From: Octopus vulgaris
Lineage: Eukaryota
Reading direction: 5' to 3'
Assembly: GCA_951406725.2 (NCBI GenBank)
Contig: OX597820.1
Span: 24,800,001 to 24,864,000, forward strand
DNA: 64,000 nt
In this document: in pieces, positions 7,505 to 63,512 of the stretch
Position numbering within the stretch: the first letter of the stretch is position 1
Layout of the letters: each line of letters opens with the position of its first letter
The notes under the pieces: model-generated
Databases searched by the model: none
What the model was told of the DNA's origin: nothing
What the model saw: the letters and a program-made list of their open reading frames with translations, nothing else
Made by a program: the position numbers and the translations under genes

Positions 7505-8720
7505 CTAACAGCCACAGAGGCCATCAAGTACAGAGATTCCAATAACACAAAAGTAGCAGGAGCCGGCATTGGAATTTGCACGTGTAAGAAGTGGAGTGCT
7601 GTCAGCGAGTTGCAGGTAGTAGAGGAACGGTTGGGGCAGAGGGCTCTGTTTGGAATTGTAATCATAGGGCGATCAGGCCTGGGCTACTTCCCAGCCTTCC
7701 AGATTGGAAGCGCTAAAGGGAAAGAGCGACAGTATCTACTCCAAGTACGCGTAGAAATAGCATGCGTTAGCTGGATGATGGGACAAGGAGCCTGGACAAG
7801 GTGGGCCTATATACAGCGGCGGAACATTACCTATATCTGATATTTGGTGGATTTACATCCAGCATATCAGATTTCTGGTCTAGGGTGTTGACGACCCTTT
7901 AACAAGTCCAACAAACCTTCATATATGAGGCAAGAGTAAAACGACGTCCTGTCCATTATGGATCGAAAGTGTTCCTTCAACGTTACACCAGCTGCCTCAG
8001 AGTTTTAGCCGATGGTCACTACTGTTGGTGACATAACCAGGTGCTTAGGGCGATTGCGGAGGTGATATCGATAGGTATTCGATCCAGTAAGTACCATCCC
8101 AAGAAGGAGGTGATCCCTTTTCTATGAGCCGAAAAGAAGACCAGTCCACTTAAACTTCAACGACTACCATAGCTACTTTCCATAGCCCCTCAACGGCAGA
8201 TTACATCGTACCAGCAACACTCCGCCCACACATAGTGATCTTCTCAAATTACACCAAACAGGTGATCGTGTGGGAACTGATTTACCCTAAGAACTGACTG
8301 TACAATGAGATGACTCATGAGAAGAAGCTTGCCAAATACCAAGAGCTGGTAGAATACTGCAGAAATCGAAGAAGGCCTGCATATTGCGAGGTAACTGAGG
8401 TGGGCTGTCGAGCTTTTGTGGAGCGTTCGTTCTGCAGGGCATTGACTGGACTTGGAATTACTGGAGGAGAGCTATAAATTTCATCAGTGAAGCTGCAGAG
8501 ACGGCTTTGGATATAGAAGGCAGACCAGACGTTTGGTGCTGTTGTGATGGCAACATGGGGCTTGAGCAACTCCAGCTGAATCTACAGGGTGATGGGGGTC
8601 TGATGCTGAAAGATCCAAAACTACCTAAGTGAAACCTGGGAAACATCACTGACAGTACGTCTCGGAGTATCCGCGCAATATCTCCTAAAAATCAATCAAT
8701 AAATCAATCAATCTATCCAT

Positions 8721-8725
<5 letters not shown>
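7505..8725 (+). mobile_element. Hero-type (RLE) non-LTR retrotransposon, 3' portion, decayed
   Basis: KKWSA..EL...EERL, GRSGLG, QGAWTRW, then LRPHIVIFS...KQVIVWEL, HEKKLAKYQELVEYCR and VTEVGCRAF. Ends in an (AATC)n/(ATCT)n tail. Confidence 0.85.
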
Positions 8726-8793
<68 letters not shown>

Positions 8794-8886
8794 CGTATGT
8801 CTGTCTGTCTGTTTCTTTATCTTTCCATCTCACTCTCTCTCTCTTTCTGTATATATGTATATATGTGTGTGTGTGAGTGTGTGTGA

Positions 8887-8935
<49 letters not shown>

Positions 8936-8953
8936 CGTAATACATATGAACTT

Positions 8954-9150
8954 GATAAATGGATAGATTGATTGATTTATTGATTGATTTTTAGGAGATA
9001 TTGCGCGGATACTCCGAGACGTACTGTCAGTGATGTTTCCCAGGTTTCACTTAGGTAGTTTTGGATCTTTCAGCATCAGACCCCCATCACCCTGTAGATT
9101 CAGCTGGAGTTGCTCAAGCCCCATGTTGCCATCACAACAGCACCAAACGT
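8954..9150 (-). repeat. 197-bp inverted copy of 8529-8725
   Basis: Direct reverse-complement match, no mismatch seen by eye, flanked by (TA)n tracts. Confidence 0.95.
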
Positions 9151-9581: not shown

Positions 9582-9732
9582 ATCAAATGAACTTGATGTA
9601 TTTATACACGACACATATCTCCTAAAATTTGCCATTTCTCGGCTTGATGATAATTGCGCAATTTCCTTTGCTGGAGATAGCTTCGGTGAAGATGGGTATG
9701 CGTTCGGTCTGAAGAAGGGCTCAAAATTAATG
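9582..9732 (+). CDS. NMDA-type ionotropic glutamate receptor subunit (GluN3-like), internal exon encoding part of the S2 ligand-binding lobe
   Basis: Acceptor tttgcag| and donor ATG|gtaagc. Translation SNELDVFIHDTYLLKFAISRLDDNCAISFAGDSFGEDGYAFGLKKGSKLM resembles the iGluR S2 pattern (AFIxDxxxLxY...C....G..F...GYGIGL..GS). Phase-2 start, phase-0 end. Confidence 0.88.
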
Positions 9733-9753
9733 GTAAGCCTTCTTTTTTTAATA

Positions 9754-10136
9754 CAAGGTGGTCGCTAGAAAAGCAGAAATTTTGAAGCATTAATAAACTG
9801 TGTAATAGGAGGTTTCTGATTCGTTGTTTTTGTTATCGATTACTGTGTCTAGTGCTTGTTATTAGCAGATATACAGAAATATCGATGCTGTCATTCATGA
9901 ATTAAAAACGTGCTTGATAAAAGCTTGGAATGTCATCCCTCAGGTTACACTTCAAAATGTCACACGAGCTTGGATTTCTCGATTAAAACGCTCTCAGGAA
10001 GTGCACGGCAGACATTTTGAATATTTGTGAGTGGTGATATATCACGCTTTGTGACACTTATTGTTTACCTCAAATAGATCTTATGAAAATATAAATCAGC
10101 ATTTCACGAATTTTCGTCTTTTCTAGCGACCACCCT
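9754..10136 (+). mobile_element. Tc1/mariner internally deleted derivative (MITE)
   Basis: TIRs caaggtggtcgctagaaaag / cttttctagcgaccaccct with a left TA. Internal ELKTCLIKAWNVIPQ..LQNVTRAWISRLKR...HGRHFEYL* is a Tc1-type transposase C-terminus. Confidence 0.8.
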
Positions 10137-10153
10137 CTCTCTCTCTCTTTCTT

Positions 10154-10210
<57 letters not shown>

Positions 10211-10215
<5 letters not shown>

Positions 10216-10865
10216 TTTATATATAGAGGGCATTATACATACATGCCAGAGGGCATTATACATACATGCCACACGCTAAGAGGGACAATTAGTCATTTCT
10301 ACCAAAAATTTTTCTCTTATGAGGTTTTCACGCTATCTACCTGACAATTTCTTGTTAAGTTTTCCTTATTAAGTAGTTGTCCTTAATTGCTAAATTTTTA
10401 TTCCGAAAAAACTTTTCCTTTCCCGAAATGCAATTCGTAAAAGTCCGCCATTTACCGGATGTAATATATGTAAACTCACCCATGTGCTTCGTTGATGTTG
10501 ATCAGTTAGCTGATCGGCTTAAGCGAGGCAGGGTCGTTTATGTATGATACATCCAGGCCTGCTGATGAATACGTAAGTATGAAATCACTGTGATACAGGT
10601 CTATATTTTTTAAATGTCTTACTTTGAAAAATTGCATTCGGTGGGATTAGTAATATTTTTGGTAGAAATGACTAATTGTCCCTCTTAGCGTGTGGCATGT
10701 ATGTATAATACCCTCTGGCATGTATGTATAATGCCCTCTATATATAAATTAATATGTTCAATAAGAAATAATTATTTTCGAAATTTTTTCTCTTATGAGG
10801 TTTTCACGCTATCTACCTGACAATTTCTTGTTAAGTTTTCCTTATTAAGTAGTTGTCCTTAATTG

Positions 10866-10868
<3 letters not shown>
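10211..10868 (+). mobile_element. Hammerhead-bearing mini-element with inverted and partial-tandem terminal repeats (PLE pLTR-like)
   Basis: Inverted arms 10211-10309 and 10655-10753, direct repeats 10306-10392 and 10781-10868, (TA)n on both sides. Confidence 0.75.
10555..10602 (+). ncRNA. Minimal type-I hammerhead ribozyme motif
   Basis: aggcctg-CTGATGA-ATAC(gtaa)GTAT-GAAA-TCAC(t)GTGA-TA-caggtct. 7-bp helix I, GNRA loop II, AUA site. Confidence 0.85.
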
Positions 10869-10911
<43 letters not shown>

Positions 10912-11009
10912 CAACAATTGTAAAATTAATTAATTATTAATCAATTTCACCAAGTGTTCAGTATGCAAAGGGACCATTTAATTCAAATTATTACATTATA
11001 TAAAAGGGC

Positions 11010-11619
<610 letters not shown>

Positions 11620-11757
11620 CGGAGATGTACTCGCACAGCAAGTAATTTGATCTGAGATCGTGTGCTGAAACGAAAACAATTGCAGCGTGGAAGGTGTTTA
11701 TAAGCCATTTAAGAAACACACAAAAGCCGTTCGATTCACTTCAACATTTAAGTTTAA

Positions 11758-11807
11758 TTTGTCAAAATATTTTCGTCGCTAAAATCCGCGACCTGTTCAC
11801 TGACAAA
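11758..11807 (-). ncRNA. Minimal hammerhead with swapped G3-C8 core, copy A
   Basis: Minus strand reads tttgtca-GTGAACA-G-GTCGC(ggatttta)GCGAC-GAAA-ATAT-TT-tgacaaa. Helices I and II are perfect and helix III is the palindrome AATATT. Confidence 0.7.
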
Positions 11808-12129
11808 GTCCGTGCTGCATCTCATTGTATATATATATATATATATATCCATCATCTAATACTGTGCATGTTATTGTCGTTAATCCATAATTCAGTTTTG
11901 ATCCAGCATGCCTTGGATCAAAGCTATTTCTGCGATCACCATTCGATCTTATTTCAATGCAGCATATCTAAGACAATATTTTAAAAGGGGATTTATCCTT
12001 TTTTAATATGTTAAGATAGCATTTGATCTACTTTTGATTCTTATTCGATTATGCATTCTTATAATTTTAACCTTTTCGTCAGAGTACAAACAGCTGAAAC
12101 AAAAAGCACAAGACACATTATCTTACATA

Positions 12130-12343
12130 CGAGAGGATGCCAAAAAGTTCGTGGCTTTCGGTAAAAGAAAGCACAGCAGGATCAGTTAATTATGATTTTA
12201 TTCAATATATTCCCCTCTAAGATTCACACAGTTACCGCAACGGTCCTTCAGTTGTTCTAAGCCCTGTAATAGAACTCGGAAGGTTGGGCCTCCAAGCAGG
12301 CCTTATGCGAAACCCTTAAAACTAGGAACTTTTCAACATCTCG
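12130..12343. mobile_element. Mariner-type MITE
   Basis: TA|cgagaggatgccaaaaagttc ... ggaacttttcaacatctcg|TA, imperfect TIRs with a TA target duplication. Confidence 0.65.
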
Positions 12344-12400
12344 TAAATTCACGCATACATACTAATATACGAAAGTACCCACCAATACACGAGCGCGTGC

Positions 12401-12436
<36 letters not shown>

Positions 12437-14308
12437 ACACACACTTAATCCTACAATAAAGAAGTTTCTATAGTTCTTTCTTTTGAAGACTATTATGAAT
12501 CGACCTTCTCTCATATCTTAGGTATTTATTTCCAAACCTCCAGCTATGCAATCTCAAGTGAACAAAACCGAATCTATAAACCTGTTTCACGAAAGAGATC
12601 TCAATGGAAGTAACCAATAATATTTTTGTTTCTGTAGTGAGCGTATTTTCAGTGTGAGCACCTTCGTTGTTCAACTTTTCAAACGCACCTGTTCCAGGTT
12701 AATCCGTATTAAGGAAGCTGCTTTCAGTAGTGGTGCTATTTCCGTTTTAGCTTCAGATTTAGAATTTATATAAAGTATTCTTTTACCTTTATTTGATGAT
12801 CATTTTCGTGTTTTATATTGGATGAAAAGAAATATTTTATATTTTCCATTTCCATAAATATCTAAATGTTCACAACGCGAAATTTTTGTAAGCAATAAGT
12901 CTTTAATTTTCCCTTTGTGCAGACTCACACGGTTGCTTAGCTTTGTTCCGATTTTGCTGATTCTTGTTACAATACGAGCACGTAACGAAGTAGATAAAAT
13001 TTTTACTTTGCGATTTATGTTTGCATTCACTTTCATTTCCTTCTAAAAGGGTATCAAACGGAGAAAATACATGTTGGACGATTCGGCTTGTGCAGAGACA
13101 CAGTTATGTAACTATATTTTGTGCCGCCCCAGAGTCCACAAAATTATATAGGAGGTTCAAAAGCGCTGTCCCCACAAAAATGTCTCCTGGGGTGGACTAT
13201 CCTTTTTACCACCCATCTCCTAGCTATGCTACTGTAGGTAGGTTATGCATCTAGCTAATTCGAAGAAGCAGACGGCATTGATATGACGATAGAACAGAGA
13301 GAAGAAGCGTCATATTGATGTTGCTTTATAAAGTCCTATATTCAAAGTCATTGTATGTTCTATTTTAGTCATTCTATATTTAGAACTATAATATCCAACA
13401 TGTCCTATCTTTTTCTCGGAAAATAGGTTGCGTATTGTGGGAGATTTGACACATATTTTTCTCAGGTCGAGCGAATGCAAGAAAACACACCAGAGTGTCT
13501 AGGAACTAAAGAGAAGAGAGAGTATATAGTCGCCAATCAATCGAATGGCCTTTCTTTGATACGGTCCATAATGTTAATATTTATCCTACAGCAACATCAC
13601 CGCCGTATAAATAAATATGAACAGTCAACGCAAGGTTGCTTCTTACTAGGGTTCCATTCAAATTCACAAATTAAATGTAAATCGGAATACATGTCTTAAC
13701 AAATGAATATAAGTATCACTCATGCTCTTCCCTTGATACCTGTTAATTCACTTCGAACCTAACTATTCGAAAGTGTGTGAATTGAGTAGCAAATTAGATT
13801 CACTCAATACACATGCTAGACGTCCATTTTATTTATCAAATTTACGCCATTTTACATCGGAAATGTCCAACTTCTACCATCCTTCTCTTTCCCCTTTCTC
13901 TATTTTACAATCATCATTCTCCTTTTTCACTTCTTATTCTTCCTTTTCCTTTCTTCTTCTTCTTCTTCTTCTTCTTCTTCTTCTTCTTCTTCTTCTTCTT
14001 CTCCTCCTCCTCCTCCTCCTCATTTCTCCTCTCTTCCTCCTCCCCTCCAAATTTTCTCCTTCTGTCCTCCTCTTCCTCCACCTCCTCCTCGCCTCTATCC
14101 CCCTCGTCCTCCTCCTCATTCTTCTTCTTCTTCTCCTCCTCCTCGTCCTCCAGCACCACCAGCATCACTACTCCCTTCTTCTTCACATTATCCTCCGCCT
14201 CCTTTTCCATCTTCGCACTTCAATCTTAATTTTTCAGAACACAGCCACTATCACAGCCTACATACTCCACCACCATCATTCCCTCTCCCTCAACATCCCT
14301 CTCCTCAC

Positions 14309-14346
<38 letters not shown>

Positions 14347-14996
14347 GTAATCATGTTATCGCAAGGTCTGTTCCAGACGTATGCTGTTACACAAAAGTAA
14401 TCGGTTTCTTTCCACTTCATCTAGATCAGTCGTTTTGGAAATCTTGCAAAAAATAATTGCTTCTAACACTTCTAAACCGTGTCTTCGAGTGTATGGAAAT
14501 TCAACAGGGAGTACAAAAGTAATAAGACAGAACAAACATACTTTTTTTTTCAAACACGCAGAGACACAATCACACGTAAACAGAAATTCACTCATATACA
14601 CTCCATCCATAATTTTTATTCCTATGTCCGTCTCTTAAACATATATGTACATAGAGTCACTCATATTCTATCACAATCAGATTCATACATGCTTTTACAC
14701 ATATACGTATATTCACACGTACTTATATATATATGCTAACACACAAAGGCATTCATATATATATATATATATATATGCATATCCATACGATCATTCATTC
14801 ATAGATATATTTGGAAGATAACTGTGTCTAATTGTATGGAAGACTAACGAAGATGTTAACTCATCATGACAAAAATCGAACGACTGGAGTACGTAAAGCA
14901 GTGTAAGAAATATATGTACACATACATACATACATACATACATACATACATACATACATACATACATACATACATACATACATACATACATACATA

Positions 14997-15434
14997 CAGC
15001 GCTGGATTAGCCATTAAGCAAAATGAGCTCGTGCTTAAGGCATCAAGGGACGGCAGCACCACAAAAATGAAAATAGTTTACGGCACGAAAGAAATCACTT
15101 TAAACTTGCTAAAATAATATTCGTAATGCCTTATCTTTACTATGTATAGAAGTAGAAGTTTTACGTAAAAATTAATTTTAACTTTGCAATTAAATAAAAA
15201 CAAAATACAAGGGAAGTTTTCAAATATAAATAAAATGGAAGTCTACTAAAATAAACATCGTTTTCCATCTTACTCATAGTTTTGTTTCGTTTTGAAAAAT
15301 AAAAACTTATTTTGTGGTTTATTACTGTTTACATTTAAATCATTTTTGTTTATATTTTGAACCATTTGTATATACTTGAGGGCACCAAAACCTTTTAAGT
15401 GCTAAGGGCCTCTGTGAGTCTTAATCCCGCTCTG
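14997..15434. mobile_element. hAT-like MITE inserted into (CATA)n
   Basis: Imperfect TIRs cagcgctggatta / taatcccgctctg, flanked by the same microsatellite on both sides. Confidence 0.6.
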
Positions 15435-15464
15435 CATACATACATACATACATACATACATACA

Positions 15465-15497
<33 letters not shown>

Positions 15498-15614
15498 TAC
15501 AAATATATGAATACATATACATTTGTTTGTATGTATGGGTATATGTATATATAAGTACTTACAGTATATATATACACATATACTTATATACGTATATATA
15601 TATATATATATAAA

Positions 15615-15910
15615 ACAAGGACGGGTTATCCGGAATTTTCTTTCGTCAGTCGAGTTCGAGATTATCGTTGCAATTTCGGTTGGTTATACTCGAGATTGCT
15701 CCAATCTGGCCAGCCCCAAGGAAAATCTAAGCTAAGAGCATTAGATTCCTTGGAAGAAACCAGCGAATGTATATGAAAACAAGGACGGAAAAAATAACGG
15801 AGAAATGTTACACAAATACAAATGCAAATAACTGGACATTAACAACAGGTGTATTTCGACTAAGGACGAATTAAATTAAGGTGGCGTGTGTGGAAGTGAA
15901 GCCTTACGGC
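15615..15910 (-). repeat. Dispersed repeat, inverted homologue of ~2860-3170
   Basis: Shared blocks, e.g. gagcattagattccttggaagaaa and caacaggtgt.tttcgacta. Confidence 0.75.
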
Positions 15911-16309
15911 GTGGACATAAGAGATGAGAGGCATTGGAAGGAATATAGATTTTGTACGGATGGAGGTCGAACCAAGAAAGAAAGTTCAGGCTTGGCCGAT
16001 ACCGGTCACCTCGAGGGAGAGGAGAGGGGTAGAGGCAGAGGAATGGAAGAATTTGGGAGGGACGAGAAAAAATGAAAAGGGACAGAGTGAAGGTGAGAAC
16101 GAAGAGAAGGCCAGGAAATGTGAGAGGGGGGGAACGAAAGAAAGAAGAGTGGAAAGAACGAAGTGTGAAGGGGCTGATAGAAAGAAAGAAAGAATGAAAT
16201 AATAAGAGAGTCGTACAAAATTTATATACATATATATATGTACTTACATATAAGAGAACAAAGTGTACGTACGCCGCTATATGTACATAAAAAAGAATAC
16301 AAAAAATGG

Positions 16310-16576
<267 letters not shown>

Positions 16577-17711
16577 ATATATATATACATGTATATGTAT
16601 ATTCATGTATATATATATACACACACACATACATTTATGTATATATGTGTGTTTGTGTGTATGTATGTATGTATGTATGTATGTATGTATGTATGTATGT
16701 ATGTGTATGTATATAACTAAAGTAGACGTGATGGACATTATATAATCCGATATGTCTGCTTTCAGATTTATAATAATCACAAAAATATAAAAGAATTCCA
16801 TGCTTTTTTAACGAGAAATCAAAAATTTATGACAGCAGAACACACTGTCCTTCACCGTCTTACTAGCTTCGACTCAATGTCCTATATTTAGACTTTTGAC
16901 ATTAATCAACGCGCATTTATATCTAGGTCTGGAGTGTTGAATGTGTCTTTCATATGTGGAAGAGAATAGATTCCAGTAGTAGGCGTATTAGTGGTTAGTT
17001 CTTAGTGTTTAAGTGGATGTTAAGAGATTCTATCTTTGGCACAAAAAGATTTTGCTGGATGGTGGTATTTTAAAAAATATTTAATACGAACTGGATACAT
17101 TTGAAAGAATATGACGTTCAGACTGTGATCATACATGTGTGTGTGCGCGCACACACACACTCACACACACACACACACACACTTACACAAGCATACAATG
17201 TAATATATACACATAGGACATGGCTTTTTCACACGTCTCCTCTCCTTTTCTCATTTTCTTCCTCGACCTTCCTCTTTCTTCAGCAATGTTTTACACTCAT
17301 TCTACTATCCTATTTGCAGTTATATATACTACTGGTAGTGTTACCCTGGGTTTCTCCTCCTCCTCCTCCTTCTTCTGCTACTCCTCCTACTTCTGCTACT
17401 CCTCCTGTCTTATACTTATTATTGTCTCTGTTGTTTGTTGTTATTAAGGCGGTGAACTGCCAGAATCGTTCACACACCGGACAGAATGCTTAATGACATT
17501 TCTTCCGGTTCTTTACGATCTGCGTTCCAATTTCTCATCGTGTTCTACTTTGTTTTTAATCCATTAGGCGTCAATAAAATAATCCCCAGCTGTACATTAA
17601 AGTTGATATAATCAACTCGCTCCCTTCCCCGAAATCGCTGGCCTTGTGCCAAAATTTGAAACCGTTATTTTATTTAATCACATTATCTTTATATATCTCA
17701 TTTCATTGCAG

Positions 17712-18002
17712 AATCGGTTATCAGACAAAATATTGACGTATACGTCCAGTGGATTTATTGAAGGACTCACAAAAAAGTATTTTGCACATAAAGGATGTGA
17801 TATGCAGAGGGCACACACGCTTGAGATAAAGTATGGTCCGCAACATACGGCCGGGTTATTTGTTTTGCTCTTGGTAGCTGTTACCCTTTCAATCTTTCTT
17901 ATGATGGGAGAATACGTTTTTTTCAAGTACCTTATTCCTGTTTTGAGGAAGAAGCCTGCCTGTAGTAAATGGAGAAGTATCAATATTATGTTTCTAAGTC
18001 AG
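17712..18002 (+). CDS. Same receptor: end of S2, M4 transmembrane helix and proximal C-tail
   Basis: ttgcag|AAT ... CAG|gtaaga, 291 bp, phase 0/0, in frame with the previous exon. NRLSDKILTYTSSGFIEGLTKKYF..GC matches the iGluR helix J/K region plus the conserved Cys; AGLFVLLLVAVTLSIFLMMGEYVFF is M4. Confidence 0.92.
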
Positions 18003-20299: not shown

Positions 20300-20607
20300 C
20301 ATGTACTGCTGAGACCCCTTTCGGTCATGACTGACCATGGGATTGCTCCTAGCAAGTTACCTTCCCTTGCAAAATTCCGGGCAAGGTTGTTTATGGAAGA
20401 CCAGCAGTCGTCCATGCATACCGGCCTCCCCTCTCCACGAAACCAGTGTTACCCAAAGGGCCGATACAGCTTGGCACCTGTGACGTCGCAACTCGTTTCT
20501 ACAACGTGAAATAAAGTGTCTTGCTCAAGAACACAACACGCAGTCCGGTCCGGGATTCGAACTCACAACCTCGCGATCGTAAGCTCGACGCTCTAACTAC
20601 TGAGCCA
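20300..20607 (-). mobile_element. tRNA-derived SINE (CORE-like)
   Basis: Minus strand head tggctcagtagttagagcg...gagttcgaatcc, then gtgttcttgagcaagacactt. Confidence 0.75.
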
Positions 20608-24918: not shown

Positions 24919-27897
24919 TTAGTTAGTTAGTTAGTTAGTTAATTTGGCTCAAAAGCAAATAGCAAGGCCATGTAGGGGGACATGGAGTTAAGTACAGGGT
25001 GGTGTTCATGTAAAGAGTTCAGGCCACTTGAGGTCCAGGGAGGCTTTGAACAAAGCAGTCGTCGGCATCTTCACCATCTCGTCTGGCAGCTTGTTCCACG
25101 GATCCGCAACCCGGACGGAGAAAGCTCCTCTCCTTCGATTGAGATGAAATCGTCGCAGGTAGAGCTTTTCGGAATGACCCCGCAGCCGACGCTCCGGAGC
25201 AGGAGTGAAGAACAGCTCTTTCGAGAGGTTACACTTCCCGCTTATGATGTTGTAGGCGAGAATGAGATCACCACGGCGGCGGCGTTTTTCAAGAGAATAA
25301 AGGTCGAGCGTCCTCAGCCTTTCTTCGTAGGACAAATTTTTGAGACCATGAACCATGCGGGTAGCCAGCCTCTGGACTCTTTCGAGATGCTGTATGTCTT
25401 TGAGGAGATAAGGAGAAGAGGCTTGAATCCCATACTCCAATATGGGTCTCACCAGCGTGACATAGAGTGGTAGGAATATGGCTGCTGTGAGCATTCCGAA
25501 TGACCGTCGAATCAAAAACAGAATTCCGCGCGCTTTGTTGGCAGCATGGACGCTTTGGGCCGAAGGCGAAAAGGAGGAATCCACCAAGATACCCAGGTCC
25601 TTTACCTGATCGGTCCTCTCCAGCAGCAGACAACCCGGCTCGAAATCAAGTTGAGTTGCAGGAGTAGAGCCGACAGGCAGATGACAGCACTTTGACACGT
25701 TCAGACACAGGTCCCAATCGTTAGACCACTTCCAAATTTGGTGGAGGCATCGACGAAGATCCTCTATACTACCGCGAGGAGCGACCAGTTTGATATCGTC
25801 GGCAAATAGAAGGGTGTGTTGCGTGAGGTCGTCGGGCAAGTCATTTATGAAGACTAAGAACAACAAGGGCACAAGCACTGAACCTTGAGGCATGCCACTG
25901 CTCGCACTGGAGACGTCGGACCGCGAACCATTAACTTGAACTTGGAAGGAGCGATCTGAGAGGAAGGCACCAACCCATCGTACAATATCCAGATGGAAAC
26001 TATATGCTTGAAGCTTGACAAGTAGTAGGCGGTGGTTTACCGAGTCAAAAGCTTTGGCAAAGTCCAATAAAACGATGTCAACAGCATCACTATCATCGAG
26101 GATGCGCGTCACCAATTCTTCCATTACTAGTAAGTTGGTCAAGCATGATCTCTTCGGCACGAAGCCGTGTTGGGAATCAGTGATCGAGGCTGTGTTTAGG
26201 AGGTGGAGCATCATACTTTTCTTAAGGATGGTTTCGAACATCTTGCTGATTATTGATGTAAGGGAAACCGGTCGGTAGTTAAGCGGGTCTTCGCGGCTCC
26301 CTTTCTTGAAAATTGGGCAGATTATCGCTCTTCTCCAGTCTGCAGGTATAACACCCGTCGCCAATGACATATTGAATAGTCGTGTTAAGGGCTCGCAGAT
26401 GACCGGAGCCAACGCTTTGATAACCCGTGGGTGTATGCCGTCAGGGCCGTGACCCTTGTTGACATCGAGGCCTTGAATAACACGTTTGACTTCGTCCCGC
26501 GTGATGACCAATCGAAGCATTGGAGGTACCGATCTATCAAATGGAGGGGTTCACGACCATCATCTTGTTTGAAAATAGTTGAAAAAGCCTCGGCAAATAA
26601 TTGACTCTGTTGATAAGGGTCCTCAATCGATATGCCTGTTGAGTCTACCAACGTTGCAATCTGGTTGTTCAAGCGGGAATTCCGCTGGACATGGGCAAAG
26701 AAGGTTTTTGGATTGCTACTGGCATTTGCCGCGATTTTGTATTCATAACTGAAGCGTTCTTTCTTTTCAATTTTCACGGCTCGGTCTCGTTGAGTTTTGT
26801 ACACCTCAAAAGCTGCAGTCGAATCCAGATTTTTGAATTCAGCCCAAGCAATATCTCTGAGTCGACGTTCTCGTTTAACCTTCTTCGTCACCCAGGGCTT
26901 GTGTTTCTTCCTCTTGGGAAGCCCAACGGGAACTGCCTGGTCAGTCAAACAGATTACATATGCTTTGAGGGATGACCATAGTTCGTCAACTGAGGACAAC
27001 GTCATCAGGGATCACCAGTCCAGAAGCGCGGAAGCCTCGGTTAGAATTTCAAGATTAATTGCAGAGAAGACTCTACGTGGCAGCGAAGTAATCGTGGGCG
27101 TAGAAAAAGTTGCGTGTATGACGAACTTCAGGACCGCATGATCACTCTTGGCAAGAGGGGCGCACACAGATACGTCTGACACTGATCTTGGATAGCGGGA
27201 GAATACCAGATCTAGCATAGATGGCTGCTGCCCAGACCGATGCCTTGTCGGATATTCAACATGTTGCGATAGAAAACAATCTTCAGCCACGTCAAGAAGG
27301 GCCTGGCCGAACCGGGAAGATGTTGTACAAATTGATGCGGGCCAATCGATCGTGGGAGCGTTGAAGTCGCCTAGTACCAAGCAGTCATGCGAAGCTGAAA
27401 CGAATCTTATCGCTTCGAGTAGATGAGCATCGTCCTGGGGGTCGGCAAGAGGCGGCCTGTAGACAGCCAACACGGGCAGGCAAAACTCAGATAGGCTCAG
27501 CTTGCAATAGACGGCATCGAATTTTGTTGTAGGTTGAGCATTTGTGGGTAGAATACCGCAGGACGGTTTGTGCTCAGACTTAACATACACAGCAACACCT
27601 CCACCTCGCCTTTTTCCTCTGTCACATCTGAAAAGGACGTAGCCCTGCAGGTGGATTTCTGAGTCCTTTACTGCTGGAGTCAGCCAAGTCTCGGTGATAG
27701 CTATCACATCAGGAGAGTCACGTATGGCCAGTGTAAATAGTTCACTGAACTTTGGGAATAAGGAGCACGAGTTGGTGTAGACGATGCTGAGCTGTGAAGT
27801 CTGAGGGGCGGGAGTTGGGGAACAAGCAGAATAAAGGGCATCAGAGATAGCATCGTTGACGGGGGTATCAATTTCACTTCGATTTGCCCTCACATCA
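24919..27897 (-). mobile_element. CR1-clade LINE, 5'-truncated, near-intact ORF2 (APE endonuclease + reverse transcriptase)
   Basis: APE motifs IAITETWL, VYRPP, GDFN and SDH; RT motifs NYRPVSLTS, DFAKAFDSV, PQGSVL and FADD; C-terminal LRGH...FSVRV...WNKLP; (TAAC)n tail at 24919-24941. Only one in-frame TGA (27012-27014) and one frameshift (~26546-26549). Confidence 0.95.
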
Positions 27898-28074
27898 TTA
27901 AATATCGCATAGTGTCATCATTAGATGACACTATGCGATATTTAAAAGAAATGATACATATATTAGATAAGGCACTGTGTATAAAAAGGTCCGAGTTCGG
28001 GAGCAAGGAAAATTAAATACGATCCTTTCGGGGTCGATAAAGCAACCACTCCAGCGCTAAGTTGGCTCCTTCTA

Positions 28075-36668: not shown

Positions 36669-37296
36669 AATGTTCCCAGTACTGTCACTGTTAATGGTTT
36701 TGAATCACGTTGTAATAATTGCTGTTGAAATTGACGAAGATGATGACGATGATAATGAAATGATATTGATGATGAGGAGTAGGAGGTGCAAGAGGATGAG
36801 GAAGAGGAAGAGGAAGATTTCGGCGATGTTTATTATGATGCAGATAACGAAATTACTGTATAATAGAAAACGATCTTAATAAATTGCTTTTAAGTAAAAC
36901 ATTTGAATTATTTTATTTGTATCTCATTCATTCATTTTTCTTTTTTTTTTTTGTTTTTGTTTTTATTTAATCATTATTCTGTTTCTTTATTTATGTGTTT
37001 GCTTTTCGGTCTGATTATCTGCGTTTTGGGGTTTATTTTTGCATTTGTTTGGTTCATGTCACGTTTGTTCTATTTTTATTTTGCTTCTATTTTTGCTTCT
37101 ATTTTTATTGAACTTCCCTTTGATTGATGATGTTTTATCTCTGATGTTTATATATTATTTAGTGTTTATTTACTATGAGTGAAACAATAAACAGCGAGCT
37201 CTTGGCAATTTGGGAGCAATCCATAGTTGAAGCCATTTTCTTTCACTTTATACTACTAATAATCTGGATAAAAACAGCATACCCATTCACCTGTGG

Positions 37297-38140
37297 AGGC
37301 GCGTGGCTTAGTGGTTAGGGTGTCAGGATCATGATCGTAAGGTTGTGGTTTCGATTCCTGGACCGGGCGACGCGTTGTGCTTTTGAGCAAACCACTTCAT
37401 TTCACGTTGCTCCAGTCCACTTAGCTGGCAAAATGAGTAACGCTGTGATGGATTGGCGTCCCATGCAGCTGAGGAACACATACGCCATTGAAACCGGGAA
37501 ACCGGGCTCATGAGCCTGGCTAGGCTTTAAAAGGGCGCATTTATTTTTTTGTTTTATCCATTCACTTAGGCTCTAGCATGGCCAGACCTGCAATCTTAAG
37601 CTAAAGTGAAAAGTAAAGTGACATAATAACACAGAAGACCTTTATATAGTTTTTATTTGAGCGGCGAGGTAACAGAATTGTTAGTGCGTCGTACAAAATA
37701 CTCAGCGTTATTTCTCCCGGTTCTTGGCGTTTTCAGTGAATTCCAATCCCGTCGTAATCAACTTTGCCTTTCATCCCTATCCCGGATCGATAAAATAATG
37801 TTCTTAGATCGATGGCATCAACTAACTCCTCCTCCCCTTAAGATTGTTACTTTTGCATCTAAATCAGAAATCATCAAATAGTTATAATTAAAGAGATGCA
37901 TGGAGGCGCGTGACATAGTGGTTAGTGTGTCAGCACCATGATCGTAAGATTATGGTTTCGATTCCTGGACCGGATGACGCGTTGTGTTCTTGAGCAAAAC
38001 ACTTCATTTCACGTTGGTCCATTCCACTCAGCTGGCAAAAATGATGGACTGGCGTCCCGTCCAACTGGGGAACATATACGCCATAGAAACCGGGAAACCG
38101 GGCCCATGAGCCTGGTTAGGCTTTGAAAGGGCGCATTTAT
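37297..38140 (+). mobile_element. Two near-identical CORE-like SINEs (37297-37540, 37902-38140) separated by a decayed Meta-like SINE
   Basis: Both read ggaggcgcgtg...gtttcgattcctggaccgg...ttgagcaaa...gctttaaaagggcgcatttatt. Confidence 0.8.
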
Positions 38141-39596
38141 TATTTTTTTTAAAGAGATGCATAAGCAGAAACGGTAGAATGTCGGTCCATATGATTCTCG
38201 GTAGTTGTTCTGGCCCTTTATGCTCTAAGTTCAAATCCCACCGAATTTATCTTTGCCTTTCATCCTTTTGGGATCGACAAATAAAGCACATTTCAAGTAC
38301 TGGAGTTGATTTCCTACACCAACACGCCTCTTCCAAATTTTCTGGTCTTAATCCTATGTTAGAAATAGTTAAAAATAGTAGACTGGCACAATCATGAGAG
38401 CGCCGAACAAACTATTTCGGTATTTGTTCTGACTTTTTCATCCCGGGTTCGTATCACGTCGTAGTCAATTTTCCTTTCATTGTTTTTACAATTGACAAGT
38501 ACCCTTATCTCCTTAGAGGTCGTTGGGGCGCTGCAGCCATGCAACGTATCAAGGACGAAAAAGCCTGGCGTAGCCCAACCTTCTCCAGGCTAAATTTATT
38601 TCTACAGCTGAGTGGACTGGAGCAGCGTGAAAAGAAGTGTTCTGCCCAAGCTCACAACGAATCACCCGGTCCAGGAATCGAAACCACAATCTGACGATCA
38701 TAAGTCCAACACCCTAACCACTAAGCCAGGCAAATTATGTTGTAATCAGTTTTGCCTTTCATTCTTTCGGTTCGATAAAATTAAGTATCTCTCAAGCACT
38801 AGAGCCAAAGCGATCATCTAATGCCGTTCTCCTCAAAACTCTTGTCTTTATGCCTAAATCAGAAATTACTATATATTTGTGTTAAGCAGGTAGAGCAAGA
38901 GAGATTCTCACATAAGAGAAACGTTCAACTGCAACTGAAGCTATATTTACTCCGTTTCATTTACTATGAGACTAAAATACGAAAACTCTTTGAAAAGCCA
39001 CGGTTATTCACTCTTCCTATTTGTGTACCTTTCCTCTAGTAGATTATGTATCTGTGTTAGACCTTCAACCAAATTTTGTGAATTGTACAAAAGAAGTGAA
39101 TAAAACGTAGACAAATTTGTGTAAAGAACAGTTTCGTATTACGATTCCCAAATTTAATCATTTTGACCACATAAATTAGTCCATTAATGTACTTGGGGAA
39201 AAAAGCGTATGAACGGAAACAAAACATGTGAAATTCAACGCAGTTCTATGTTCTCTCATCTGCAAATCACCAAAAAATAAGATGCAATGATATTGATGCG
39301 GTAGGGACGAGCGGAGATAGGCAAATTTTTACCTGCGAGCCAAAATTTGGTTTCGATATCTAGTTGAAACCAACTTATGTTACTGTATAGAATACTGATT
39401 TCAAATTTTGGTACAAGACCAGCAGTTGCGGTGGAGGTGTAAATTGATTACATCCAACCCAGTACTGAACTGGTACTTATTTTATCGATCCCGAAAGGCA
39501 AAGTCAGCTTCGACGGAATTTGAACGCCGCTAAGTATTTCGCCCGGTGTGCTAACGATTCTGACAGTCTGCTTCCTTTTTACTGCGCATAATATTC

Positions 39597-42497: not shown

Positions 42498-44040
42498 TCT
42501 ATCTCAAAGTTAGAAAGACAGACTTTTAAAGGGGAAACTGTTACCACTTAGTATCTTATCCGTTTTGGTGTTGTAATTTTCCGTCACGTTCTGTTCCCAA
42601 AACCATTTAAAGTTTAAACTAAAGGTGAAGTCCCTTACTGAATTTAATGAAATATATTCAACAATTATATTAATTTATTAATTCACCCTTTTAATAAAGT
42701 CATGGGTGATGATATTTGTATGTTCAGAGCTGTGTCACTCTAGCTAAAAAACAACAGAAATTACCGACCTGTTCGGGAAGAGTCCGTACGATACATATGC
42801 AATAACTGAAAGTATTTTCATTTTTTTATTCCGAATAATACAATGCGGGAATACCAAGCATACATAAGTAGGGATGGAATATACGGCGGTAATGTTGAAT
42901 TAGCTGCCATTAGTGAATTGTACAATGTTGCAATTCAGGTTCATCACAATGACAATGAAATTATTCTTCCTCTGTTCACCGTTTGTGGTCGAACATTTAC
43001 AGAAAGGAAGATTTCAGTGTTATATAGTGCCGAAGTTGACAACGGTCACTACGATGCTCTCTTTCTCATAAATAATCATGAGGATGATAGAAATGTAGAA
43101 GGAAATGAAATATCACAAGACAGTAAAAAAGAGGAAAGAATGAGAATTCAAACACTTTATATGAAAACTGTTGCAGAAAGTAAAAACTATCGGAAAGTTA
43201 GGTTGCAAAAATATTAGGGAATATGAGAGGAGGACAAGAGAACAAGGTGACAAAAATAGGGAAATATGATTGTAAAGAAAGAAGGAAAATTATAGAAATA
43301 AAAAAGGTACAAGAAAATTAAAAAAAAGATAAAGAAATACGATCGCAAAAAAGGAGAGAAAAAGGTAGACTAAATAGAGAACAAGAGAGTGAGAGCGACC
43401 GAAAAATACGACTGAAAAGGGGAAAGCTTTCCAGAGAAAATCATCAGAAAAAGTATAGACGATTTCAATGGTAAGGTGTAGCATTTAATTATGGTCCTAA
43501 TCATAATTATGCATCTGAAAAAATGTCTCCCTGGGCTCTATGTACAAAACATGTGAAAAGTGAGGTGCTAGGAAGTGAGACAAGGAATCATTAGGTATGT
43601 GTTGTTCTAATGGTAAAGTCCATTTACCAATAACTGAGCCTCCAAAACTTATGAAACACTTTCTTAAGAATTTTCGAGCTGACACTTGTACATTTCAAAT
43701 GACATCATTTTGAGCAAAACTTATTGGGGAAAGTGGGTTTATGTCGACTTTTAAAGTGCAAGGACAAATTTATCACAGAATTGGCTCTCTTAAGCTTTTA
43801 CAGAATAAAGATCCACAGATTTTACAAAAAAAAAGCACGGTGTCGCAGCAAGATTTGTCCAGGTACAAAATTAGAATTTATTTTTAAGCTGCAAGAAATG
43901 CTCCACGAAAAGAATTCTTATGTGAGAAGCTTTCAGAATATACTTTAACTGCAGAATTTCAAATTGTCATCGATACCGACAAAAGACCAGCAGGAGAACA
44001 TGTCCGTCGGTTCAATGTTTCTTAGTGTAATGAAGAGAGT
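42498..44040 (+). mobile_element. Decayed Helitron 5' portion: OTU protease domain + RepHel N-terminus
   Basis: GDDICMFRAVS (OTU GDGNCLFRA), YGGNVELAAISELY and NGHYDAL; then C..*.A...GMCCSNGKVHLP, FQMTSF, FKVQGQIYHRIGSL, LQEMLHEKNSYVRSF and DKRPAGEHVRRFN. Confidence 0.85.
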
Positions 44041-44686
44041 ATAAATACTTGGAAAAAATTATTTACTCCTTATGCTTAAAGACTAAAACTCCGTTCATTT
44101 AAACAATATATATGTATGAAGGCGCATGGCTCAATGGTTACAGTGTCAGGCTCTCGGTTCCCGGACGGGGCTGCCTTATGTTTTTGAGCAAAACACTTTA
44201 TTTCACGTTGCTCGAGTTTACGCAGCTGTAGAAATGATTTGCAAAGCCACTGGTACCAAACTGCATCGGCCTTTACCTTTCAGTTGGATAACATTGATGT
44301 CGTGGATAAGAGTTGCTGGTATGCATGGGCGACAGCTGCTCTTCTATAAACAACCTTGCCAGGACTTGTGCTTTGGAAGGTAACATTCTAGATCCCATGG
44401 TCCTTCATAACCGAAAGAGGTTTTTACCCTACATATATATATATATATATATATATATAGTCAATTCAAATAAACAAACAATTCAAAATTAAAAAATATT
44501 TTTTTTAAATCATAAAAGACGAACGTGGGGACATGCAGAAAATATGTATTAGTTTGACACTCAGTGAAAGGAGAGAGTTTGACGTTTCGAGTATAGCTCT
44601 TTGTCGGAAAGAAGAAAGCGAAAAGTCCAAAGATAAAGAAATCGCCAACGGCACACGTGTAGTTATACATACAGGAATACATACAT

Positions 44687-52028: not shown

Positions 52029-52101
52029 ATGTGGGACCGGTTTCAGATTTTTCAAGATATGTCTGCACACATATACTTGATTTATCTTCATCAGCCAACA
52101 T
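52029..52101 (-). ncRNA. Type-I hammerhead with extended helix II and GUC site
   Basis: Minus strand reads atgttgg-CTGATGA-AGAT.aaa.TCAAG.t.ATATGT(gtgcag)ACATAT.CTTGA.aaa.ATCT-GAAA-CCGG-TC-ccacat. Confidence 0.85.
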
Positions 52102-52285
52102 ATACCCGACAACATTTCAGATGTTGCCACATCAATGCCAATACACTCGACTGAAACGCCAAAACGCTGAGAGAACGAGAACAGTGAAGAAGTTTCAATA
52201 AAAATAGTAATGCAATACGAGAGTATTGCTTTCCAGTAAAAAATAGCCCGTGAGGGAAAATTATATATATATACATATATATATA

Positions 52286-52870
52286 TTAATAGAGGTCACA
52301 AAAGTGACAGAGGGTGCTGACTAGCACCGCTTATGCTAAAATAAGAGCTAAAATATCTCTAAATCTACTAACACACTATAGTTAATGACTGACAAAGAGG
52401 GATAAGTCCCTAGCGTACACAGCCGTATCGCGATTTCGAATTTTGGTGCAGATCACCTTAATCCTCATCAGCAGCTCTTAACATCTGGGGTTAAACTCAA
52501 TTTCCTTTGTCAATCTTATAAGAAAAATCATTTGCTGATTTTCAAAACAGTAAAAATGTAAACAGCAAATTAAAAGCGTGGCTTATTAGCAATTAGATCC
52601 TAAAGGCAAAATTAAAAGACATCACAAAAGTGAGGGTGCTGACTATCACCGATTATGCTAAAATGCACCAAAATTCGAAATCGTCATACGGCTGTGTATG
52701 CTAGGGACTCACCTCCCTTTGTCAGCCATTAGGTATAGTGCTTTAGTGACGTTAGAGTTAATTTAAATCTTAATTTTAGCATAAGCGGCGGTAATCATCA
52801 TCATTCGTCACTTTTGTGTCCTCTGTTAATTTTTTTCTTTAAGTTCTAATTGCTAATAAGCCACCCTTCT
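52286..52870 (-). mobile_element. Hammerhead-bearing mini-element with partial-tandem and inverted repeats
   Basis: Direct repeat 52296-52342 / 52622-52664. The inverted arm 52664-52870 matches 52286-52450 and 52575-52612. TA-rich flanks. Confidence 0.7.
52421..52476 (-). ncRNA. Minimal type-I hammerhead ribozyme motif
   Basis: Minus strand reads agctg-CTGATGA-GGATT.aa.GGTG(atctg)CACC.aa.AATTC-GAAA-TCGCGA-TA-cggct. Palindromic helix III ATCGCGAT. Confidence 0.85.
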
Positions 52871-52994
52871 AAGTTGTTATATATATACGTGTGTGTGCGT
52901 GTGTGTGTGTACATGTGTGTGTGTACATGTGTGTGTACATGTGTGTGTACATGTGTGTGTGTGTACATGTGTGTGTGTACATGTGTGTGTGTGT

Positions 52995-60493: not shown

Positions 60494-60953
60494 ATTTCGT
60501 TTTTGGATTTGGTTTGCAAGATTCTTTATATGAGTTCGTGTGTTGAAGAATATTCTGTTGTGTCTGGGGAGAGTCATTCACTTTTAGTGCCTTTTTATAT
60601 AACACACACACAGGTAAAATTTCCACTTATTTCTTATTTTTATTTTCTAAAATTTTCGTTGCGTCTTGCAAACTTTTCAATAGTCTTGACTCGCCAGAGT
60701 CAAGCCTATTGAAAAGGTTGCAAGACGCAACGAAAATTTCCACTTATTTCTTATTTTTATTTTCTAAAATTTTCGTTGCGTTTTGCAACCTTTTCAATAG
60801 TCTTGACTCTCTGGCGAGTCAAGACTATTGAAAAGGTTGCAAGACGCAACGAAAATTTTAAAAAATAAAAATAAGAAGTAAGTGGATATTTTACCGGTGA
60901 GTGTGTTAAATAATAAGGCAATAAAAGAGAATGACTCTCCCCAGACACAACAG
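60494..60953. repeat. Multiply inverted array of one element end
   Basis: Four alternating-orientation copies of gagtcaagactattgaaaaggttgcaagacgcaacgaaaattt. Confidence 0.85.
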
Positions 60954-61639
60954 TATATTAAAACAGTTTATTATTTAGAAATTGAACAGAATAATTTAAA
61001 TAAAGTTCGATATGATCGGTTTGAGTGGAAAAAGTGTAAGTCTGTACAGATAAACTATAATCCCTTTTGAGGATATAATCCTTTTTTGCAATGTATCTCG
61101 AATGTGAATGTATCTGTAAATAGCTGCTTATAAAGTAGAAAAGTAACCTGGAACTAATCGCTTTAGAGTAATTCTTTCATAACCGTAGAAAGTGGGATAT
61201 GTGGTTCGGTTTCAAGGTGAGTGTGGTCGTGTTTCTTTTTTTTTATTTTTTATGTCGAAGGGATTTTTCATCCATTGCGTGATGAGCTTTTATTTACTTT
61301 TAAATTTCATTCGAGAATATTTATAAAATGGACTTACTGTTATATTTATAAAATAATAACCTTAAGTACAAACCTCCCTTTATAAATATTCAAATTAAAA
61401 TTCAGAAATAAAGTTGTAACATTAATATAATTTATCGTTGAATTTTTGCAGTTAATAAATTATATTCATGCTACATCTTCATTTTCTGAATTTTAATTTC
61501 AATATATATATATATATATATATATGTAGAAGGAACAGTCAAAACGACTGCTTCTTCTAGCGTGTAAAAATACCTGTTAAATGTAGTTTCTCTTGTGTTT
61601 AAATGTACACTATTTTATATTGAGAATATGTTGTCTATT

Positions 61640-63512
61640 GACGTTTTATACATGCTAGGCCACTTTTTATGCCTGCTAGGCAACGCATATCTGTCCACGA
61701 AGAGATAGAAAATTTGCTCCTCCTGTGGATCAATGAGAAGCAACTCACAGGAGATACGATTACTGAGACCATCATCTGCGAGAAAGCACGAGTGCTGTAT
61801 GGAGTTCTCCTGATGTAGAACCCTAGAACATCTATGGCCAGTCGTGGCTGGTTCAATGATTTGAAGAAGACTGGTGTTCATAGCGTCGTCAGGTATGGAG
61901 AAGCAGCGAGTTCTGACACGAAGGTAGCTGAGGATTTCGTGCGTAAATTCCGTCAGCTCATCGCAGCCGAGGGGTACATCGCACAACAGGTATTAAATTC
62001 TGATGAAACTGGTCATTTTTGGAAAACAAAATGCCCAGAAGAACATACATAACGGCAAAGGGGAAAAAAATGCCAGACCACAAGCTTATGAAAGATAGAT
62101 TAACTCTTAGCCTTTGTGTCAATGCGAGTGGAGACTTGAAGATTAAGCCACTACTTGTCTACCATTCCGAAAATTCACGTGTGTTCAAGTTGCACAAAAT
62201 CCTAAAGAAGAAGCTGCAGGTCATGTAGAGTGTAAATGTTAAAGCCTGGATCACCAGGCAATTCTTTACCAAGTGGGTCAACCTTATCCTCGCACCAGCA
62301 GTGAAAAAATGCATTCTGGACGACGATCTTCCTCTCAAGGCCCTCTTCATCCTCGACATTGCTCCTGCACTCCCACCTAACTTCGAAGATGATATCCGGG
62401 ACGAATTTAAATTCATAAAAGTTCTATACCTTCACGCAACACCACCCCTGTCTTACAGTCCATGGACCAACAGGTGGTTTCTAATTTTAAGAAATCGTAC
62501 ACTAAATGCCTGTTTCGTCGGTGCTTTAGAGTCACCGAAAATACAAAGCTAACCCTTCATGAGTTTTGGAAGGAGTACTACAACATTGTTAAGTGTCTGA
62601 AAATTATAAATATGGCTGGCAAGATGTAACGAGAACACTGAATTCTATTGGGAGGGACCTGTGGCCTGATTGCGTATCCGGAAGAGACTTTGAGTGGTTT
62701 GAGTTTGCGACACTTGTAATCGAGGAGATGGTGTCTCTTGGCAAGTCTATCGGCCTCGAGGTTGACAATGGGGACATTAACGATTTTGTCGAGGAGAACT
62801 TAGAGGAGCTGACGATAGACCAACTCCTGCAGCTTCAGGAGCAGCAGCATTCGGATACAGTGGAAGAGATTGGTTCCGCGGAGGAGGCCAGTGTAGCGGA
62901 GAAGGCTATTTCTACGAGTAATGTTGGTAAAGTGGCAGTATATTTCTGAATGTGTGGAAAAATACCATCTTGAAAAGGTATCTACAAGTCGTGCGGCTTT
63001 GGCGCATTTTCGTAACATTTTGAAGGTATGCAGACATCTCTTGATACCTTTTTAATGAACCGACCTGCAAGTGGAAAAGTGAAGAAAGGGTGTCCAAAAA
63101 ACTTAAATTAAGCGAAAAGAGACGACGCCAGAAATTATTCTTCCTGAAGTTTTACTAGAAGAAGATTCTCCTTCCAAACAATAGTCCTCCTCTTCTCTGT
63201 TCCATCGTCTTCCTTGCGCCCATTTCATCCCGTCTTTAAGGTAATTAAAGTAATAAAGCTAATTTACATATTTTTTTGCATTCTCTTTTATTATGTTTTT
63301 ATAATTGTCATTTTCCTTCTAACTGCATCTTTTCTGAATTTAAAACTCATAAAAGATAACTTCTGAGAGGGGCTTTTTTTGAGGGGGGGAGCTCGAACGG
63401 ATTAATTATATTTTAATTAATTTCAATGGGGAAAATTGATTTGTAAAACGAGTAAATCGTAAAATAAGGTCAGTCATGGAACTAATTAAACTCGTACTGC
63501 GTGGTATCATTG
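61640..63512 (+). pseudogene. Decayed Tigger/pogo (TIGD1-like) transposase with 3' TIR
   Basis: CENP-B HTH (LLLLWINEKQLTGDTITETIICEKAR), ASRGWF, GEAASSD, NSDETG, KDRLTL..CVNASGD and LFILD, with several frameshifts and stops. Ends ctcgtactgcgtggtatcattg|TA. Confidence 0.9.

Follow-up and report, generated by a model that had tools for sequence, protein, structure and literature searches.

Type I hammerhead ribozymes in the pLTRs of Penelope-like elements (PLEs), and the proposal of circular templates for these elements, both date from 2014 (PMC4209133). Related small elements, the non-LTR retrozymes of metazoans, have been described with units of 150-450 bp, those of invertebrates measuring 170-400 nt (PMC7229834). 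A 2026 survey reports retrozymes of 51-972 bp that are derived from pLTRs, describes monomer derivatives, and takes at least two consecutive ribozyme-bearing units as the criterion for an active retrozyme (10.64898/2026.07.22.740005). Where PLEs form inverted copies, these are most often head-to-head (PMC3846280). Work with a purified PLE protein has shown that it cleaves and extends both DNA strands, preferring DNA rich in A and T, that its reverse transcription starts internally on the RNA, and that it can use uncleaved RNA (PMC11167929).

The genome of Octopus vulgaris is reported to hold 30 recently active Penelope families (PMC13282606). The words ribozyme and retrozyme are absent from the text and supplement of that paper, and passages of PMC8557442 that concern cephalopods describe only Naiad elements. 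A literature search whose coverage was thin for subscription papers found no cephalopod example of a hammerhead-bearing Penelope element or retrozyme, supplementary family lists aside. Here we describe such an element at 10,209-10,868 of a 64-kb stretch of O. vulgaris DNA (hereafter, the window). With a probability of about 0.6, we consider it a recent single insertion of a non-autonomous, hammerhead-bearing, retrozyme-like element of 476 nt, one that a Penelope-like RT/GIY-YIG protein would have moved in trans.

Repeat map and target site

The anatomy of the element is given in Table 1. Its direct repeat has a period of 476 nt, and runs of at least 12 are absent at periods of 474, 475 and 477. 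An initial annotation had placed a repeat of ~87 nt at 10306 and 10781 with a period of 475 nt; this is the same repeat, its A-run having been aligned through a one-T gap (T5 against T6). The annotation's inverted copy (10211-10309, of 10655-10753) was also borne out and extends by two bases, to 10209-10309 against 10655-10755, with the sole mismatch between arm and source at 10254/10710. Both ends of the element do meet (TA)n, as had been noted, with the left tract at 10180-10212 and the right at 10867-10909. Tracts of (TA)n make up 4.3% of the window, and a target-site duplication is not discernible inside those that flank the element.

Table 1. Features of the hammerhead-bearing element and its host intron (positions in the window)
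Feature	Position	Strand	Remark
Flanking GluN3-like exons	~9582-9732 and 17712-18002	+	Consecutive; colinear alignment to GluN3A
Intron of GluN3-like NMDA-receptor gene	9733-17711	+	7,979 nt; same strand as ribozyme
Left target microsatellite	10135-10212	.	(CT)n 10135-10178, then (TA)n 10180-10212; final 4 nt (10209-10212) common to arm
Inverted arm, copy of 10655-10755	10209-10309	-	3' end faces left (TA)n; 100/101 identical
Inversion junction	10304-10313	.	A5T5 palindrome; microhomology 1 nt (exact register) or 4 nt (one-T gap)
Partial upstream copy (pLTR-like)	10309-10392	+	84/84 identical to 10785-10868
Complete 476-nt non-coding unit	10393-10868	+	34% GC; strong predicted fold
Long imperfect rod (predicted)	10395-10668	+	88 confident pairs including hammerhead helix I; 11 are G-U
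Type I hammerhead ribozyme motif	10555-10602	+	Core 10562-10568; predicted cut after 10595 (AUA)
23-nt tandem duplication inside unit	10693-10739	+	Present in arm too (10225-10271)
TA-rich internal site, arm start	10736-10755	+	Putative second-priming site
29 nt missing from inversion junction	10756-10784	+	Unit stretch between arm start and partial-copy end
Right target microsatellite, (TA)21	10867-10909	.	Initial 2 nt common to element 3' end

The forward copy amounts to 1.18 unit lengths, and arm and forward copy together cover 690 nt (1.45 units) on one periodic map. The 3' end of the arm differs from the forward 3' end by 113 nt. Self-BLAST found no second copy of the 476-nt unit elsewhere in the 64-kb window. 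The duplicated bases show only 1 mismatch in 185 (184/185 identical), which implies that the insertion is recent.

An inverted repeat of ~100 nt between TA-rich flanks could also suggest a MITE, or another non-autonomous TIR DNA transposon, that had inserted at TA. The right-hand partner of the arm, however, is internal and ends 113 nt before the element does, so that the repeat map contradicts a transposon of this kind, which would moreover leave the direct repeat and the hammerhead unexplained; we find this origin hardly credible. The same map could conceivably come from an assembly or sequencing artefact between the two (TA)n tracts, or from local DNA repair that rearranged an older single copy. 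The near-identity of the duplicated pieces and the placement of both ends in microsatellite would suit such an origin, PLE-type structures are known to trouble assemblies (PMC8557442), and an inverted duplication of 263 nt (93%), in which no ribozyme was detected, surrounds ATCT and TA microsatellites close by, at 8529-9150. Nevertheless, a fold-back of a read mirrors adjacent sequence, whereas the arm copies a segment 346 nt away and differs from it by one real substitution. Other hammerhead-bearing families in the window also have inverted and tandem layouts, with diverged copies. An artefact or repair event is accordingly very improbable, and the recent insertion remains our preferred reading of the map.

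The hammerhead and the 476-nt unit

The unit contains a real hammerhead motif. It consists of a 7-bp helix I, a CUGAUGA core, a 4-bp helix II with a GUAA loop, GAAA, a near-palindromic helix III and an AUA triplet. A descriptor that called for the core CUGANGA or its UUGANAA variant, helix II, GAAA, a paired helix III, UH and a helix I of at least 5 bp went unmatched when the unit was dinucleotide-shuffled 20,000 times and both strands were scanned, and matched twice in the real window as against none in 100 block-shuffled windows. The earlier description of the motif as canonical needs some qualification, however. Rfam gave no family of any kind for the window at the gathering threshold, and no hammerhead family for stretches of 901 nt and 121 nt at E<=10, which yielded only chance matches of the miRNA/snoRNA type. 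Compared with the canonical type I motif, A10.1-U11.1 here replaces G-C, and helix III is longer than the 1-2 bp usual for type I hammerheads (PMC4209133). The exact 27-nt ribozyme pattern had no match in a collection of bacterial and archaeal genomes, as expected for an animal element.

Fold prediction gives helices I and II pairing probabilities of ~0.9 or more in four contexts. Helix III reaches a predicted 0.03, the core mispairing with it, and the active fold of the monomer makes up 0.9% of the ensemble. Because this fold is so rare in the monomer, while two copies could form a helix III of -12.1 kcal/mol, the predicted ribozyme is probably of the dimer type.

Another type I hammerhead element lies at 52285-52880 on the minus strand, with its core at 52471, a palindromic helix III and an AUA site. 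Its layout of (TA)n, inverted arm, partial tandem and (TA)n is as in the first element, at a period of ~322. Its three partial copies are only 78-84% alike, and the forward ribozyme is intact. Arm and forward copy overlap by ~100 nt (78% identity), and the unit has a weak predicted fold (z -1.7). Comparison with the 476-nt unit produced only short matches, the best in TA-rich sequence (E 0.013), and a match of 10 nt near the 3' ends of the two elements is not significant (E 0.53). With no homology demonstrated, the two are unrelated as far as compared. Next to the second element, at 52035-52094 (-), lies a hammerhead-like motif with a GUC site, a CCGG palindrome and a helix I of only 3 bp.

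The 476-nt unit (GC 0.338) is non-coding. The longest stop-free frame within the element is 56 aa, every frame is interrupted in the 273 nt between the ribozyme and the 3' end, and all seven element frames tested against Pfam lacked a match at E<=0.1. An ORF for RT and GIY-YIG is absent within the element, which is thus not an autonomous PLE. Nor did a PLE ORF or GIY-YIG match emerge from 16 frames scanned (9 outside the element), out of 99 long ones listed for the window. A scan for sigma-70 promoters gave one site where 3.6 were expected, although this bacterial consensus is inapplicable to an animal.

As a circle the unit is predicted to fold to -130 kcal/mol (z -6.2) with 65% of its bases paired, and none of 60 shuffles folded as low. 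In a background of 33 windows of 476 nt, folded with 10 shuffles each and taken from the 71 of 134 that passed a simple-repeat filter, two scored lower than the unit, both with fold-back inversions; the next stood at -5.1. Fold strength alone is no proof of selection on the RNA, since the opposite strand folds well too (z -6.9). The use of G-U pairs is asymmetric: on the ribozyme strand they number 18 among 144 confident pairs, on the opposite strand 5 among 126, and this points to an RNA fold on the former. The long predicted rod (z -8.2) would hold the hammerhead at a three-way junction, with two smaller domains downstream. The base of this 275-nt domain falls 2-18 nt from the repeat junction, its outermost helices being weak (p 0.5-0.6), and the 162 nt before the ribozyme are paired into the predicted rod and have no Pfam match.

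These features bear on whether the unit is natural at all. The pieces might instead be 5'-truncated termini of a long autonomous PLE, in the form of its last 476 nt, a jump onto the 3' end of a second transcript (84 nt) and an inverted pLTR, the period being accidental. PLE insertions show heavy 5' truncation and make up partial tandems together with an inverted copy (PMC8557442), and solo-pLTR and truncated copies are common (PMC4209133, PMC3846280). The forward pieces also have one 3' end in common by construction, and the element at 52285-52880, with an end difference of 45 nt, fits the classical reading as arm, pLTR and tail. Known pLTRs, on the other hand, either take in the ORF's first 12-22 codons or stop ~110-150 nt into it (PMC11167929, PMC3846280). 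Here the closed frames beyond the ribozyme, the rod-paired sequence before it, the nearness of the junction to the rod base, and an arm that ends 113 nt from the forward end rather than the usual 30-40 (PMC8557442) all speak against a terminus. In particular, the lack of coding remnants on either side of the ribozyme and a junction near the rod base make a natural 476-nt unit more plausible than the truncated end of a long PLE, and we regard the latter origin as doubtful.

Priming and template of the insertion

For the proposed trans-mobilised 476-nt element, what the sequence shows is the repeat anatomy, the hammerhead motif, a predicted fold and microhomologies at the junctions; all of the enzymatic steps, the PLE involved and the RNA's form are inferred. 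A source locus elsewhere would yield a folded 476-nt RNA as a tandem transcript, a circle or linear monomers. Both strands of the (TA)n tract would then be cut by the PLE endonuclease, and one DNA end would prime at unit position 10868 through a 2-nt TA match; the RT starting there would copy the unit in full, past an intact ribozyme site, and go on for 84 nt into its neighbour. The other DNA end could anneal by 4 nt at the TA-rich 10752-10755 of that neighbouring copy, slightly in front of the first RT, and this second priming would account for the 101 nt copied into the arm. Finally, the two cDNAs would be joined at A/T microhomology with a loss of 26-29 nt, and the site repaired.

Several features of the junctions suit this scheme, as do the layout of the element, which is the ordinary one for PLE insertions (PMC8557442, PMC3846280), and the activities of the purified PLE protein (PMC11167929). 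On the periodic map, the arm begins 26-29 nt upstream of the point where the forward copy stopped. Microhomology measures 4 nt between arm start and left (TA)n, 1-4 nt at the inversion junction, and 2 nt between the 3' end and the right (TA)n; under twin priming, as described for L1, such microhomologies are expected at the 5' junction and at the inversion junction (PMC2912911). The initial annotation had envisaged reverse transcription for about 1.2 rounds with a template switch. The 1.18 units and the added arm agree with the first part of that proposal, while the arm matches a second priming from the other target strand better than a single template switch. By our own arithmetic, random placement on a 476-nt unit would give a gap no larger than this in ~6-13% of cases. 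The geometry comes from one locus and is not seen in the element at 52285-52880.

In a narrower version of the same explanation, the template was a covalent circle of 476 nt that arose from cleavage by the hammerhead and ligation by the host and was copied by rolling-circle reverse transcription. The cDNA does pass an intact cleavage site and exceed one unit length, arm and forward copy fall on a single periodic map for 1.45 units, and helix I and the rod are predicted to keep the cleaved ends together. Moreover, retrozyme circles have been demonstrated in coral, mussel and axolotl (PMC7229834), and for PLE tandems a circular template had been suggested (PMC4209133). Yet all of these points are also compatible with an uncleaved tandem transcript or with a template jump from one linear RNA to another. 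Folding cannot tell a circle from a linear RNA either, as 34 linear permutations came out at about the same stability (-129.6 to -137.4 kcal/mol). In vitro, PLE protein inserts uncleaved RNA and ribozyme mutants insert normally (PMC11167929), and only one of nine Xenopus retrozyme dimers was cleaved in vitro (10.64898/2026.07.22.740005). The position of the arm was considered as evidence for a circle and rejected, since arm and partial copy need only have shared one RNA. Of the annotation's circular or tandem RNA of ~475 nt, the reverse-transcribed ribozyme unit therefore stands, and the geometry does not discriminate among circle, tandem RNA and template jump; a circular template can be put forward only tentatively.

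If the two ideas are combined, the locus would record a true circular retrozyme RNA of a cephalopod, copied by a Penelope protein from both cut target strands through rolling-circle synthesis and twin priming. This combination is unlikely, but were it true, the offset between arm start and forward end over all genomic copies would make a DNA-readable test of circular templates. The same offset would also test how the tandem and inverted ends of PLEs form, which specialists on these elements list as unresolved.

For the 476-nt element as such, the locus is a clean, recent specimen whose junctions can be read to the base, and these suggest twin priming as a source of the 5' inversions of PLEs. 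Twin priming would be a concrete rival to the published ideas of self-priming and tail resolution (PMC3846280, PMC8557442). Among titles and the starts of abstracts, with subscription papers thinly covered, no account of twin priming as a PLE mechanism was found.

With its single ribozyme, for which misfolding is predicted in most monomers, the inserted product cannot release a unit-length RNA unaided. With a single hammerhead at the locus, it is also not an active retrozyme by the two-ribozyme criterion. Earlier labelled a retrozyme or pLTR-only element, it earns part of that name as a non-coding ribozyme unit of PLE type, and its one hammerhead falls short of the rest. The most apt reading of the locus is that of a dead-end progeny copy, made from a retrozyme-like unit mobilised by a PLE.

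Genomic surroundings and comparison with known systems

The element lies ~480 nt into the intron of the GluN3-like gene, in sense orientation. Alignment of the flanking exons to GluN3A gave E 1e-7 for the downstream exon and a weak E 0.011 for the upstream one. The downstream exon is 86% identical to an NMDA 3A-like protein of Argonauta hians (one match among 281 candidates, all longer proteins); a search for homologues of the host exon among proteins of near length found no match. The element is probably an inert intronic passenger. It places a sense-strand ribozyme, predicted to be weak, in the intron of a neural receptor gene; any influence on the host transcript would be speculative. Loop II of the ribozyme (10573-10578) reads GTAAGT, in sense within the intron, which we take to be the splice-donor consensus and a possible cryptic donor. 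As a working donor it was set aside: joined to downstream acceptor-like sites it gave no open frame by inspection, and the match is likely due to chance.

Adjoining the element between two (TA)n tracts is an insert at 10910-11498 with inverted arms at 11010-11144 and 11354-11498 (91% alike, 67 nt of them free of mismatches); a degenerate sequence that resembles a hammerhead occurs near 11281-11327. It is probably another PLE-type insertion into the same microsatellite. A further repeat family, at 60494-60959 and 117-316, carries a minimal hammerhead-like motif with the core UUGAAAA (129 +, 60797 -, 60680 -) and a helix I of only 3 bp, and its copy at 60.5-61 kb has a head-to-head inverted and tandem structure. 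A relaxed scan, run without a shuffle control, listed minimal hammerhead-like motifs (7-nt core, helix II, GAAA-CG-UH) at 2527 +, 6873 -, 51668 +, 59618 - and 59655 +; four of the five have a base other than A at core position 6, and one is altered at position 4.

The window also holds repeats of other kinds. A LINE at 25006-27914 (-) has an AP endonuclease and an intact RT (Exo_endo_phos, E 4e-13; RVT_1, E 4e-31) and adjoins a (CTT)46 tract. Weak Pfam matches below the cut-off were fragments of an OTU-like protease at 42810-43217 (E 7e-4) and of a DDE_1 transposase at 62229-62552 (E 0.006). A dispersed family of ~250 nt (37294-37554, 37901-38150, 38605-38731, 887-1025, 20502-20607 and 44154-44238) looks SINE-like, its 5' part being tRNA-like by eye.

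Among known systems, the LTR retrozymes of plants (PMC7229834, 10.64898/2026.07.22.740005) are likewise non-coding, hammerhead-bearing and non-autonomous. Those are described with a type III ribozyme in each of two LTRs, a PBS, a PPT and a 4-bp TSD, whereas here there is one type I ribozyme, and it lies outside the direct repeat. The 5' inversions of L1 (PMC2912911) are similar in that the inverted segment comes from just upstream of the point where the forward cDNA stopped, with short microhomologies at the junctions. In contrast to L1, the octopus insertion shows no poly(A) tail or discernible TSD, its forward part exceeds one unit, and the enzyme would be a PLE protein rather than L1 ORF2p. 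The non-autonomous elements of the Chlamys group, such as MRC1, are also short PLE derivatives that give pLTRs and head-to-tail insertions (PMC8557442). They belong to a green-algal clade in which canonical hammerheads are mostly absent, and are set beside the octopus element by description only.

EN+ PLEs of the Penelope/Poseidon, Neptune and Hydra groups (PMC8557442, PMC3846280, PMC4209133) also form partial tandems with an adjacent, truncated copy inverted head-to-head, carry a hammerhead with a palindromic helix III, and insert at AT-rich or (TA)n targets with no discernible TSD. Unlike in these PLEs, the octopus locus has no RT/GIY-YIG ORF or start of one, its arm does not overlap the upstream partial copy, and its ends differ by 113 nt in place of an optional tail of 30-40 nt (PMC8557442).

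With metazoan non-LTR retrozymes the element has in common a non-coding unit, a type I hammerhead motif, a GC content below 50%, high predicted self-pairing, a head-to-tail arrangement and a proposed mobilisation by PLEs. At 476 nt its unit is larger than the 150-450 bp given for metazoan units and the 170-400 nt of invertebrate retrozymes (PMC7229834), and within the 51-972 bp of the 2026 survey (10.64898/2026.07.22.740005). It differs in having 1.18 units with one ribozyme and an inverted arm instead of a tandem array, and in its octopod host. PLE-mobilised hammerhead elements are a kind already known, and the locus described here adds an octopod example to them.
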